From the NCBI RefSeq assembly GCF_013167455.1, contig NZ_CP038328.1: a stretch of 64,000 nucleotides of DNA; one strand, given 5' to 3'. Shown in pieces: positions 14,101 to 20,100 of this stretch. The position numbers were made by a program. The DNA is from Escherichia coli O157:H7 (GTDB taxonomy: Bacteria > Pseudomonadota > Gammaproteobacteria > Enterobacterales > Enterobacteriaceae). Position 1 is the stretch's first letter; every line of letters begins with the position of its first letter.

Positions 14101-17100
14101 TTACCGCCGCAGCCGTTCCGGCTTCTTCCAGTGGTACGTTATTTTTTCTTTCTCCCGATACAGTTCAACGCGGCGATTGTAGGCCAGCATTTCAAGAACG
14201 CGGTTCCGTATGTTGCGCATATCAACGCCATTAAGTTCTATACCATCACGGCGCATCACTTCCGCTACAACACGCACATAATTTTCAGCGGTCACGCTGT
14301 CCGGCTGTGTGGCCTGTTCGTCATGCTGCTGGCTGATTCCGGCGACGCGGCGGATTAATCCCAGTAGTTCGGCTTCTGTCATTGTGCCCCCATCGCTCTG
14401 ATAGTCTGGTGTCGTCGGGTCCTTCCTGGAATTATGGCCCGTTACGGGGCGGCGACCTCGCGGTTTTTATCTGTTTATGAGAATTTTCCGGCAAAAGTCA
14501 GATCCGATCTTCTTCTCTGTAACAGACTGTTTAACAATGAAAATATTAAAAAAAGAAAGGATCTGACACGAGGCATTTTAGCCAGAAAATGCCATTATCA
14601 GATCCTTTCTCATTTTTGTTCAATAATTGCGCGTCTGTTACTCGCCTTTCTTCTGTAGCAACTTTTCCGGTACGTTTCCGGTTGTTTCTTTCAAGTAATC
14701 AGCCAGTATCTGTGGGAGGTTGTCGGCAACTCTGGCACTGGCATTACAGGCTTTAACCACTTCCCTTTTAAGCCTGTCCAGCATGGCGGGGGTAATCTGT
14801 GGGAAGCTCCTTTGCATAGTAAGCGGGAGGCTGTCCATGATTGATGAAATCTGACTCGCCAGCTTTGAAAGCGCGTACAGGCAAAACTCAGTATCAATCA
14901 CGTCACCGCGATCGCGATCGTTTTTAAGTTCCTGCGCCTCTGCCTGTGCTGTCAGTAATCTGATCCTGACTCGTAAAAGTTCATCATCGTCAATCTCGCC
15001 TTTGTCGTTTATAAGCTGGCTAATTGCATTGTTAACCCTATTTTCTATCACGCTGGCAACATCATAAAACGCCTCACGGCCTTTACGCTCAACGGGAGTT
15101 ACTCCCCACTTGTCGAACGCTGTCGCACTTACACGGCAGCTTTTCGCCATGTTTTTTTTGTTCATCAGATGAGATTTCATTAATACACCAACTTAATTAC
15201 TGCTTCAGGTTGGTGTATTGCTTGCATCTTTCCCTTTTCATTCATAAAGATAGATCAAACAACAAAACCACCACCACCACCCTGAAAAGGCTCATAAATA
15301 GCGAAAATCCGCGAGGTCGCCGCCCCGTAACGGGCCATAATTCCAGGAAGGACCCGTAAAAAAGCCGGATTTCTCCGGCCTTGTCTCAGATGGTTTTCAG
15401 TATGCGATCGATGTCGCCGTCATCGCCCTGGTTTCTGCCATCGTATGCCATGCCAGCTGATACGGCTTGCGGGCTGTGCATGTCCATAAAGTTTTCAAAG
15501 GCTGCGGTAAGTTCCGGCGCAACCTTCGGACGTTCCTGCTCTATGGTCATGCTAAGGATGCTTTTAGCCGTACCAACATCGATACAAGGCACGTTTGCCA
15601 TTGCACGCAACAGCGGCTGATAGTCTTTATGCTCATGAAGCGCCATAATCGCATCAGCGCACGGCTTGTCCTGCTCTTCCAGTTTGTTTAGTTGATATAC
15701 GGCCTCATAGGTTGATAAACCTCTGTCAGCCATTGCCCGCGCTTCGACTTTAAATTTACTCGCCAGCGGTAGCGTCATGATGCTTTCATTCGTTGCCATC
15801 GTTCCCCCTGCTTATCGGGCCAGCGGCTGAACGGATACGCCGGAACCCGCAAAGGCGGCGCATTTTTTCGCATCGGTGTCGACGCTCTCAGGCCAGTTAA
15901 CGGCGGCAATATTGAATATCCCCGTCTTGTAACACTGTGCTGATTTCTGCTTTGACGTGTCCACAGGGTACGAGGTCAGATAAACAGCCTTGCCAGATTC
16001 CTGACCATCCCACGGCTTAAACTCGCCATTGTCTGCCAGCATCAGCGGGGTAAATTCCTGAATAACGCCAGCATCAGCGGCAAAATGTACCAACGTCGTG
16101 GATACCTGCTGACTGCCTGCAAATAACTCAATGTATGGAGTGTCCATAGAATCCCCCCGTTAACCAATTTTGACGGTAACAAATTTGCGAATATCTGCCG
16201 GTACCGGCTGCGGTGCACTGTGTGTCTGCACGTACTCAATCGCCGGATCGCCGTCCTCAATCCAGTTTTTCGGGTAAAACATGTTTTGTGTTGCGCCCGT
16301 TCTTACCGCTTCCTGATCCATTATCGCACCATAGGCCACCAGCCCTTTATTGTTGGTGTTACCCAGGACCAGCAAATCAGGCTCAAGGAAATATTTTTCG
16401 GTACCATCGCTGTCAGTGTATTTGCCGGAATAGACGATAAGGGCCAGATCACCAAGATAGCCTTTAAAGCTCACCACTTCGCCCAGGTTTTTACAGGCCA
16501 GTTCGGCGGCGGATTCTGAACCACGGGAAAGATCGTACAGCTCACGGAATTTTTTAAAGCTGCGTAATGTGCGCCATACCTCAGCGCCCATAATCATGAC
16601 GTTTGCGGGGCAACCAGCCTGATCAGCATAAAGCTCGATGTCATAGATTGGGTCGTGCATGTCTTTATCCTGCTCGGACCATTTTTTACCCTTGGCCTGC
16701 TCTATGATGCAGTTTTCCGGTATTTTCCAGTCGATTTCATAGCGTTCTATGCCTTCGCCCTCAATGATGTTTTTTCCGGTCGTTACCGCATTCACCGCCA
16801 GCCATTCCACGCGTGCCTTAATGGCGTTTATCTGGCGGCGCATGTTGCCAGTAATCAGGCGCATACGGCGATAGGTAGGGTCGTTAAGCTGTGCCGGATC
16901 TTCTCCAGCCATGCGCATGATGGTTTTCGTTGGATCGATTTCGTGCTTTGGCTTCATGTAGCCAGGTTTGATTGTGCTGGTTTCGTACCCTTTATCGCGC
17001 TGAACCTGGCTACCCACCATAGGCGAACAAAACGCCGACATGGTGACTTCTTCAATGTCCAGGGTATCCAGCATGATGTTTTGCGTGCTGAATGTCGCCA

Positions 17101-20100
17101 CGTTCGGGAAAAACAGCGTGGTAAACAGAGGGCTGAATTTAAAATCCGCAATATCCCCGCGATTCAGGTACATGAAAAGCTGGTTAGTGTTAAGTGCCGT
17201 TGCTTTGCCTGCCATTATTCACCCCCATAATTTTTATGCATCCCAAGCGCCGCAAGTAAATAAGAGCGTACAAGTGAACCTATCGACGGCTCCGGCGTCA
17301 TCAGCGGATCCAGTCCAGCCGCAACGCCAGCTTCATAGTTTTTTTTGTGGCGCTGCTTGAGCACCTCCACGATTTCGGGGCTTATGTACACCGAAACACC
17401 GCTTTTTTTCTCTTCAGCCATAGTAAGAAATTCCTCTTCGACTAAAAAAATCATAACTGGATGTTTATCCAGTCCTGATTATAATCAGAATTGCATTTTA
17501 TGCAATGATATTGAGTTATGTTGCAAATTATGAAATGATTATCCCGATCACGAACGCCAGTGCATCCAAAAACCTCATATGCAAAAGCCCGATAAGAACC
17601 CTCTGACCTTATCGGGCTTTTTTTGGGCGCAAAAAAGCCGGATTGCTCCGGCTATGTGTGCTGTGTGCTGGCTCAGTCTCTGATCTCTTTCAGAAATTCT
17701 ATCAATGCATCTATCTGTTCAGGATTTACCGCCAGCATTTCACCGGATAGAGCACATCTCACAAAACCATGCTGATCCTTTTCAATCAGTGCGCCCGTCT
17801 CCAGGAATGCGCGGTAATCATTGATGCTCATCGTCTCCATGTTGTCAGCATGGTATTTATCACGCTGTTTTAATATCTCATCAAATTTCATCGGCATTGT
17901 TTTTTTCCTCTGTTGTGTCTGTTTGTTTCAGATAGTAACTATGCCTGACCGTGACGAAAACCCGGTAATGCGCCATACCGTTTCAACTGGTGCAAAAAAA
18001 GCCGGATTTCTCCGGCTGTTTGATTAGCTGTCCTGGTAATTGCGCCATATTTCATCACCAGCACCATCTATACCCATTTCGGCATAAGTGCGATCGACTG
18101 CCTTTTTCAGGTCTCCGAAATTATCCGGCGGCTCCGGTGCCCTCTGTGCCTTCCTTGAACATTCCAGCCGTCGCATCGTGATGTGATGCCGTTCCTTGTC
18201 TGTCTCCACCAGCTGCATGACTTCACCCCATCGCGCCGCCGCCCTCCGGTAAAAGCCTTTCGCCTCCAGTTCCTCCGCTATGCGGTCATGTACCATCGTC
18301 ACCCCCTCAGAACGAAATATCATCACCGTAAGGGTCATCGCCTCCCGCTGGTGGCTGATTACCCTGTGTGCCTGTGGTTTTGCGTCTGTTCCCGCCTGGA
18401 CGTGCCGCGCGGGCACTGATTACGCTGTCTGCGATAACCTGCCAGCCCTGCCGCGTTTCTCCGTTCTGTCCGGTCCACTGGCTTACCTGCATCGTGCCGG
18501 ATACGCTGGCAACATCGCCTTTTTGATGTTTAGCCAGGAAGCCGGCCTGTTTGCCAAATGCGATGACCGATAACCATAACGTCGCCTGTCCGTCCTGTGC
18601 CTGGCTGCATGGCAAAGATACCGCCATACGCGCCAGCGTCATCGGTGTGCCCTTGCTGGTCTGTTTTACCTGCGGGTCGTCCACCAGCCGCCCGTAAGCG
18701 GCTATCTGTGCCGTCATAATTCCACCTCTCCGGTTTTAACGTTGATGGTTGTTACCTGTTCCGCTTCGGCAATCTCCCGTTCTGTCAGCGTGGCAAAGTT
18801 TGCCGCCGCCGTGGTCATGAATGCGCTTATCAGGTCGGGATGTTCCTTCGCGTATCCTTCCCGCGTGTGGCGGTCTATCGTTCTGATTGCCACCTTTAAG
18901 GTGTGCTCAGTCATGTCTAACGCTTTATATTTTGGCTCTGTTCTGTCTCTGCGTTTTTGGGTCATTTCTCGCAACCTCTCACTTTTTCGCCTCACTTTTT
19001 CAAGCGTCTCACTTCGTCGCAGTTGGGATTTTCGGTTTTTCTATGTGTGTGTTTCATAAGTATTTTTTTACCCCTCACTTTTGAGGATGTATACAGGTCG
19101 AAAAGTGAGGGAGAGCGGGCTAATTTTGGCCCTCTTTCTATCCCCCTCGCTTTTGCTCCTCACTTTTATAGCGGCGCTACATCATCCCCATCGATACGAA
19201 TAACCCCATCTTTTTCCAGCTTGTACAGCCAGCGCCGGAAGTTTTTCATTTCATACCCCAGCTTTTTCATGTCATCACGTAACAGCGGGATCGTGCACTT
19301 GTCGCCGTTCTGTGTGCGTGAACGGATGCACCCCCATAGCGCGGTATGGTTTTCCGTCTTGTTCCCTGCCTCCTCGATGCGCTCCAGTTCAACAGGAGGG
19401 CGCGGATCATCCACCACCACCAGCGACGTGATTAATTCACCGTCAGCGTCGGTAAAAAGCTCCACCACGCGTAAGTCATATGCGGCTTCTTTGAGTTCCT
19501 CCGCGTCCTTCATTTTGGTGCATGAGATAACCAGCGCTTCGCTTCCTGCGTCCTCCCTGCGTATCCGGTATTCAGCATCCAGCGAAGCACGAAATGCACT
19601 GGAACCGCGCGCGCCTTTCGTCTCATCCTTGCCGGAATGGTGAACCACCAGCACCGTGGCCCCTGTGCGTCGTTTCAGTTCGTCACAACCACGGATAAAC
19701 GCCCCCATATCACGGGAATCATTTTCATCATTCCCACCAAAGCAACGCGCCAGCGTATCCAGAATAATCATGCGTACAGGTTTACCCGTTTCCCGCTCCA
19801 CCTGACGGGCAGCGATAACCATTTCATCAACATCAAGCGGGGCAGCCGGAAAGATGGGGCGGTTTACCAGATACAGATTTTTCACCTGCTCATCGTGCAC
19901 AACCTCCCAGGCTTTTACACGACGCGGAACACCTATACCGCCTTCACCAACCACATAGAGAACCGCACCATGTGCAACCCTGCGGCCTCCCCACTGGCGA
20001 CCAGTGGCAACATGGCACGCCCACGATCCGGCAAGGAATGATTTATAGGACCCGCTAGCCCCGTATATGCTGCATAGCGATACCGCCGGAATAATCCCCT

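Follow-up and report, generated by a model that had tools for sequence, protein, structure and literature searches.

The stretch analysed here, 64,000 nucleotides (nt) of Escherichia coli O157:H7 contig NZ_CP038328.1 (hereafter the window), contains an island of ~11 kb between phoQ, which ends at 13500, and roxA, which starts at 24777, and our subject is a set of three near-identical small hairpins, T1, T2 and T3, that lie between genes of this island. The island is bordered by att-like direct repeats (13582-13656 and 24559-24633) and the minus strand encodes every one of its genes. The gene order begins with an integrase, AlpA (PF05930), Icd-like proteins, a DUF4222 protein (RgdR-like) and a RepA/AAA_25 helicase, continues with p93, SSB, a PerC protein (PchE-like), p74 and p79, and ends with homologs of the lambda E-type capsid and lambda D-type decoration proteins, p137, a Nu1-type small terminase and p93end. 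Its size class (~10-15 kb), int, alpA, a pri/rep gene, the unidirectional genes, the att site and the lack of lysis and tail genes are those of a phage-inducible chromosomal island (PICI), and since the gene set and layout agree with the published Gram-negative PICI (PMC6092414) we assign the element that hosts the hairpins to this class. Helper-phage induction, replication and high-frequency packaging have been shown for its relatives EcCICFT073 (PMC6092414) and EcCIEDL933 (10.1101/2022.09.08.507074), while the island described here is known from its sequence; the window is 100% identical to strain TR01 and others. In the direction of minus-strand transcription, the features surrounding the hairpins are:

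18024..18296, minus strand: gene for a PerC-family regulator (PchE-like), the final gene of a long alpA-to-perC string that T1 is predicted to end
17994..18017, minus strand: T1, AGCCGGA-GAAA-TCCGGCT followed by T7, starting 7 nt past the stop codon of perC (pchE-like)
17654..17993, minus strand: p74 cassette, a leader plus an open reading frame (ORF) of 74 aa (17673-17897; PHROG 1957, uncharacterised)
17631..17653, minus strand: T2, AGCCGGA-GCAA-TCCGGCT followed by T6, starting 20 nt past the p74 stop codon
17583..17624, both strands: T2', a longer hairpin with the stem GCCCGATAAGG/CTTATCGGGC, with T4 behind it on the minus and T7 on the plus strand
17451..17512, minus strand: control region of the capsid operon, with a promoter-like TTGCAT-16-TATAAT (-10 at 17483-17478) and three palindromes
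15386..17454, minus strand: capsid unit, comprising p79, the lambda E-type capsid homolog, the lambda D-type decoration homolog and p137
16160-17215, minus strand: lambda E-type capsid homolog
15812-16147, minus strand: lambda D-type decoration homolog
15386-15799, minus strand: p137, annotated by NCBI as 'head-tail connector'
15358..15380, minus strand: T3, GCCGGA-GAAA-TCCGGC followed by T6, starting 6 nt past the p137 stop codon and directly adjoining cosQ
15281..15356, minus strand: lambda-like cos copy (cosQ ACGGGTCC, cosN GGGGCGGCGACCTCGCGG) upstream of terS
14638..15180, minus strand: terS, a Nu1-type small terminase homolog of the packaging unit, downstream of T3

An exact search with the motif GCCGGATT[T/G]CTCCGGC returned three matches in the window (15364-15379, 17637-17652 and 18001-18016), and no fourth copy was found anywhere in its 64 kb even when up to two mismatches were permitted. 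The chance expectation is 0.05 copies per window, and three copies occurred in 0 of 100 dinucleotide-preserving shuffles. On the plus strand each match is preceded by a run of A6-7, and therefore it is the minus strand, that of all island genes, which carries the hairpin GCCGGA-GAAA/GCAA-TCCGGC with T6-7 behind it. The repeat unit extends to ~30 nt, with 80-87% identity among the copies (repeat family D2), and T1-T3 share one architecture, in which a stem of 6-7 bp, five of them G-C, closes a GNRA tetraloop and is directly followed on its 3' side by a U6-7 tract (T7 in T1, T6 in T2 and T3; 5-8 T in related loci). The bare 16-nt stem-loop folds at -10.4 kcal/mol and the small hairpins with their flanks at -14.3 to -18.3 kcal/mol (z = -3.8 to -5.0), values that no shuffle equalled. 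All three start within 20 nt downstream of a same-strand stop codon (7 nt for perC, 20 nt for p74 and 6 nt for p137). The original prediction had described three near-identical hairpins with T-runs at these places and its first two sets of coordinates hold, but the third, 17984..18006, is displaced by ~10 nt toward lower numbers and truncates the hairpin, which in fact spans 17994-18017. The further hairpin that it had reported at 17587..17624, within T2', is real and more stable than the small ones, folding at -21.7 kcal/mol (z = -4.0).

A custom scan gave six hairpin-plus-T-run candidates on the coding strand of the island, three of which are T1, T2 and T3; the others are T2', a hairpin with a U7 tract at 17478-17451 and a weak hairpin upstream of alpA. 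A second terminator scan placed T1 and T2 as the top minus-strand sites and missed T3, whose stem it extended into the T-run, and which the custom scan recovers. The covariance models of Rfam 15 identified no family at E<=1 on either strand between positions 13000 and 26000 of the window. We also considered a kinship with repetitive extragenic palindromic (REP) elements, to which GCCGGAT/ATCCGGC bears a likeness by eye, and set it aside given the 16-nt unit, the constant T-run and the absence of the hairpin from the majority of E. coli genomes. A known O157 small RNA such as Esr41 at the hairpin sites was rejected, Esr41 being encoded on SpLE1/OI-43 and not in this island.

The short GC-rich stem and loop, the 3' U-tract and the position downstream of a same-strand gene, all of which are found in T1-T3, are the sequence characteristics of Rho-independent termination. 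Our reading, to which we assign a probability of roughly 0.7, is that T1-T3 are Rho-independent (intrinsic) terminators on the PICI coding strand which have been inherited as a portable end-piece of gene cassettes and which lie at the joints where such cassettes are exchanged. Very probably the hairpins themselves belong with the ordinary intrinsic terminators, an element type already known, and call for no new mechanism. The intrinsic terminators of E. coli and its phages have the same short G+C-rich stem, tetraloop and U-tract a few nt past a stop codon. They differ from ordinary terminators in that an identical 16-nt stem-loop occurs three times in 2.7 kb and follows at least five unrelated genes across the satellite family.

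The extent of this reuse was assessed by an exact-pattern scan of IMG/VR, which returned at least 120 contigs, most of them of ~10 kb (PICI size), with one to three hairpin copies each. In total, 202 instances of the hairpin with its T-run were assembled from 125 sequences (124 loci and the window), with the loops GAAA (100), GCAA (89), GTAA (3), GGAA (1) and GAAG (3). At least five unrelated upstream genes end at the hairpin, at fixed distances from their stop codons: p137 at 6 nt (52 of 52 loci), p74 at 11 or 20 nt (30 of 30 loci), PerC alleles at 6-7 nt, SSB at 16 nt and p93 at 19 nt. Downstream, at least six kinds of sequence occur: a cosQ of lambda type in 69 instances and a second cos type in 16, T2' with the promoter region of the capsid operon in 37, the p74 cassette in 25, the leader that belongs to the HK97-type packaging module of capsid-forming PICIs in 22, and one further region. 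Among 78 contigs that were chosen by PerC and not by the hairpin, and in which PerC identity goes down to 74%, the exact stem is kept after PerC in 67; six have one uncompensated mismatch in it and five have no hairpin. The simpler reading of this conservation would be purifying selection on the stem. The loop is position-specific, with T3 always having GAAA and the p74 copy GCAA in 28 of 30 cases, which argues that hairpin copies are not homogenised within islands. The near-identity of the copies would be explained by the ~30-nt unit of stem, GNRA loop and T-run having been inherited with the cassettes across the E. coli PICI family and held by purifying selection.

That the hairpins lie at joints is apparent from comparison of related islands. 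Partial megablast matches to this region end at the hairpins (15356, 17623/17632 and 17996), with the breakpoints at T2 being 17632, 17653 and 17665. When the 120-nt flanks of the hairpins were clustered, five upstream and six downstream contexts were found in 11 combinations; T2' with the capsid promoter, for instance, follows PerC, p74 or SSB. Contigs with the arrangement PerC-hairpin-T2' differ from the window by an insertion/deletion of 364 bp that consists of the p74 cassette and one hairpin copy and is bounded exactly by T1 and T2, which as members of repeat family D2 are likewise spaced by 364. Two other occupants of the same chromosomal site are also informative. Sp7 (CP-933C, O-island 51) of strains Sakai and EDL933, which is the capsid-forming PICI EcCIEDL933 (PMC3378721; bioRxiv 10.1101/2022.09.08.507074), has the same insertion site and integrase as the window island and the p93-SSB-pchE-T1-p74-T2 block in common with it at 94% identity. 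The homology to Sakai Sp7 (94%) runs from p93 to 17632 and is then absent until 14382; past T2, Sp7 has an HK97-type capsid, portal and terminase module, whereas the window has T2', the lambda E/D-type capsid module, T3 and cos. The prototype of the Gram-negative PICIs, EcCICFT073 (PMC6092414, PMC6739421), is at the same roxA/phoQ site with the same unidirectional layout, and is homologous to the window (94%) from 17665 to 15284. Its order of PerC, hairpin (GCAA), T2', promoter-like site, p79, capsid c1499, decoration c1500 and p137, followed by a hairpin (GAAA), cos and a second, inverted cos, matches that of the window. It differs in having rppA in place of the Nu1-type terS of the window, in its PerC allele and in being without the p74 cassette, and hence has two hairpin copies and not three. 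The Sp7-like left arm and the EcCICFT073-like right arm overlap solely across the T2 hairpin, which on these alignments identifies T2 as their crossover joint. The modular assembly put forward in the original prediction is thus supported by the combinatorial flanks, by the insertion/deletion between T1 and T2 and by the meeting of the two blocks at T2.

Over the whole island, 12% of 621 internal homology endpoints are within 30 nt of the hairpins, which span 2.6% of island length. By these comparisons the hairpin clearly marks joints; it may only mark viable ones, or it may have caused them through short-homology recombination. The modular theory of mosaic lambdoid phages proposed short boundary 'linker' sequences, and the hairpin unit is similar to these in being a short conserved sequence at the edges of exchangeable gene modules. 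It differs from the lambdoid linkers in that the boundary sequence would itself be a terminator and in that many joints of these islands are without such a sequence. At T3, the homology to phage cos begins at cosQ, directly after the T-run, and the hairpin is absent there in lambda. The hairpin as a component of phage cos was rejected, as the cos sequence common to lambda and 97 lambdoid phage records starts no earlier than cosQ. The roxA/phoQ site (13500-24760 in the window) is filled by different PICIs in different strains: Sakai carries the capsid-forming Sp7, CFT073 carries EcCICFT073, and the O157:H7 lineage of the window carries a mosaic of the two. We had considered the window island to be OI-51/Sp7 and abandoned this identification, as the Sakai comparison puts the capsid-forming Sp7 at the same site and the window island is a different one, a mosaic.

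The positions of the hairpins suggest how transcription of the island may be organized. No terminator-like site was found from alpA to perC in the custom scan, so that this long alpA-replication-SSB-perC string is probably one unit, which T1 would end or attenuate, and T2 would end the small p74 cassette. Beyond T2 is T2', the hairpin of which (GCCCGATAAGG...CTTATCGGGC, 17587-17617) is flanked by an A7 run and, at 17618-17624, by a T7 run. With T4 on the minus strand but T7 on the plus, it is predicted to be bidirectional, with an orientation better for the plus strand. In 37 instances it stands next to the small hairpin as a tandem, and its stem is conserved and its loop variable. The capsid control region, which is conserved in loci L002, L013, L023, L074, L084 and CFT073, has three palindromes (TTGCATAAAATGCAA, CTGATTATAATCAG and ACTGGATAAACATCCAGT) that overlap the promoter-like site, and the full hairpin at 17478-17451 with its U7 is predicted to be terminator-like only toward transcripts entering from upstream. 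Transcripts started at the capsid promoter would begin inside this third hairpin and escape it, while read-in transcripts would meet three terminators, T2, T2' and the U7 hairpin, and be blocked just upstream of the capsid operon. It is the capsid operon alone that appears to have a strong upstream barrier of this kind plus a promoter-like site of its own. Finally, T3 would end or attenuate the capsid transcript ahead of cos and terS, with the outcome that expression of the capsid and decoration proteins is high and that of TerS low. Phage T7 has an intrinsic terminator, T-phi, after its capsid gene 10, and T3 resembles it in its position after the capsid genes and before a packaging gene, where a leaky terminator would lower the level of downstream low-copy proteins.

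Several points weigh against our reading of T1-T3 or reduce its reach. Termination at T1-T3, and its efficiency, are predictions from sequence. No sigma-70-like promoter was identified in the T1-p74 interval or in that from T3 to terS, although the scan also misses TTGCAT-16-TATAAT and is weak evidence; with no recognisable promoter for p74 and terS, T1 and T3 would not be complete stops if these genes are expressed. Taking the promoter scan at face value, T1 and T3 are probably attenuators rather than insulators, with p74 and terS dependent on read-through, and the 'tight insulation' of the original prediction is doubtful for both sites for the same reason. Its partition of the island into transcription units is sustained for the capsid unit, with three upstream hairpins and a promoter-like site of its own, and in so far as the hairpins are at gene-unit boundaries, but does not extend to insulation in general. 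With regard to structure, the stem is invariant or singly mutated in all relatives found and there are no compensatory changes, so the hairpin is backed by its anatomy and by convergence and not by covariation. Distant homologs of p137 offered no covariation either, none being diverged enough, as the homologs are restricted to E. coli with at least 83% identity. The contig samples are redundant and mostly from E. coli, and their counts are not independent events. Lastly, several hairpin-free gene boundaries are equally dense in breakpoints (again in redundant loci), from which it follows that the hairpin is not required for mosaicism.

A different explanation of the same arrangement is that the hairpins are conditional terminators, which silence the capsid and packaging genes in the integrated island and are read through by a processive antiterminator after helper induction, the candidates being a helper Q- or N-type protein or the AlpA of the island; the whole unidirectional island would then be one unit. 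This is attractive given that all island genes are co-oriented, and there are several observations in keeping with it: AlpA is needed to activate PICI genes (PMC6092414), the AlpA of Pseudomonas aeruginosa, an antiterminator loaded on DNA, bypasses intrinsic terminators (PMC7969949, PMC9371919), the island AlpA belongs to Pfam PF05930, no promoter-like sites were seen for p74 and terS downstream of T1 and T3, and the GNRA-loop hairpin is superficially boxB-like. However, a comparison of the island AlpA with PDB sequences yielded only 8c3t and none of the P. aeruginosa AlpA chains at E<=10, and so the link between the two proteins rests on a common name and fold class only. There is no boxA-like sequence (CGCTCTTA-like) within ~40 nt upstream of any hairpin, so that a lambda-type nut site (boxA plus boxB) was rejected, and boxA-like matches are at chance level in the window (49 versus 43.9 expected). 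The conserved promoter-like site of the capsid operon is a further point against this reading, and the published PICI accounts that we examined do not mention antitermination, none of them linking PICI AlpA to it. Antitermination by AlpA or by a helper Q or N protein is accordingly without positive support, and we consider it quite unlikely.

A role at the level of DNA, as a short-homology linker for cassette exchange or as an accessory packaging signal beside cosQ, with termination being incidental, seems to us slightly less probable again. It would account for the 85 of 202 instances with a cosQ-type sequence, of either of two cos types, directly behind the hairpin, for breakpoints exactly at the edges of the hairpin and T-run unit, for the direct copies that flank the p74 cassette and for the two to four hairpin places in O157 genomes. 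It would not explain why PICI instances keep a terminator orientation relative to the upstream gene, or why loop variants are nearly all GNRA, an RNA-level property; in addition, the second complete cos copy of the island (14416-14491) and the phage cos sites are without the hairpin, many joints are without hairpins, and in unrelated bacteria without PICIs the same sequence is a gene-end hairpin. This last observation bears on another alternative, that the three copies have no common ancestry and are alike only as the optimal small terminator. A scan of one genome per species located the same 20-mer on contigs of unrelated phyla (Bacteroidota, Bacillota and others), at least 120 in number, where by our own arithmetic ~2 chance matches would be expected for a 19-base pattern in 298 Gb. 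In 72% of these cases it lies no more than 100 nt past the end of an ORF of at least 100 aa, as opposed to 10% at random positions. We regard the sequence as a generic, convergently found terminator solution that is not special to this island, and it is the repeated use inside one element family that is particular here. For the copies within that family, independent convergence is highly improbable: their similarity reaches past the stem to ~30 nt, unrelated genomes have one copy per contig whereas PICI contigs of ~10 kb have one to three, and the cassette structure shows copies travelling with modules. Furthermore, the hairpin is accessory in E. coli and not a core-genome terminator, as the GAAA version occurs in 795 of 5426 complete genomes (15%), in a median of two places per genome, and is not spread over core genes.

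Beyond portable terminators that lie at exchange joints, which is the reading we prefer, it is conceivable, though rather unlikely in our estimation, that the ~30-nt unit is a dual joint, serving both as a strong terminator and as a short-homology crossover site for cassette swaps between satellites that co-replicate during helper induction. The swapped cassettes would be p74, the lambda-type capsid, HK97-type packaging and the two cos types, and the exchange might be carried out by helper Red/RecT-type recombinases. If true, the hairpins would constitute a terminator-bounded cassette system that would explain the interconversion of classical and capsid-forming PICIs at the same chromosomal site.

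What is new here is modest, consisting of the reuse of the hairpin and the exact joint of Sp7-like and CFT073-like sequence at T2, both unmentioned in the published PICI accounts examined; the hairpins are unmentioned in the two EcCICFT073 papers (PMC6092414, PMC6739421). The hairpins provide a concrete map of transcription, open to experiment, for a satellite family of medical relevance, which includes the experimentally tractable EcCICFT073 and the O157 Sp7/OI-51. In this map an early/replication string would be ended by T1, a small cassette would lie between T1 and T2, the capsid operon would be shielded and have its own promoter, and T3 would be an attenuator before cos and terS or rpp. 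T2 marks the exact point where a classical and a capsid-forming PICI differ at one chromosomal site, and as such is useful for reconstructing satellite evolution and for engineering PICI-based delivery vehicles.

Several further observations were made on the neighboring features. The palindromes at the capsid promoter resemble operator sites, and PerC, which is encoded just upstream, is a candidate regulator. The -10 palindrome also reads TATAAT on the plus strand, and a divergent RNA of ~135 nt that ends at T2' (17485-17624) is conceivable; it has no Rfam match. The match of p137 to the head maturation protease profile PHROG 53 is confined to the C-terminal end of that profile (positions 495-567 of 583), and p137 may be a Nu3-like scaffold. 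A second cos copy at 14416-14491, with the same cosQ ACGGGTCC and cosN GGGGCGGCGACCTCGCGG, is inverted relative to that at 15281-15356 around terS, the pair being 91% complementary, and is followed by three cosB-like R repeats (14497-14616); two cos sites have already been published for EcCICFT073. Between the cos copy at 15281-15356 and terS there is an (ACC)n run, accaccaccaccacc, at 15268-15282, and a similar run is present in CFT073 (L326, ~4610). The Nu1-type protein was considered as an Rpp homolog and this was rejected, as a PDB search gave no RppC match at E<=1.

At the other end of the island, a hairpin without a T-run, TGGCGGC-ACACA-GCCGCCA, is located directly past the alpA stop codon (22730-22748). 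Other alpA alleles have a different stem, GGCGACC...GGTCGCC, at the same place, so that the position is kept and the sequence is not. Repeats of the CAACGTGGAACAA type are found near both att ends (13625-13651 and 24602-24626) and between int and alpA (23214-23260), and are probably integrase arm sites. In a capsid-forming PICI (L004, 5950-5990), a motif of the same type is internal, right after T2, which suggests that the packaging module was joined at a former island end.

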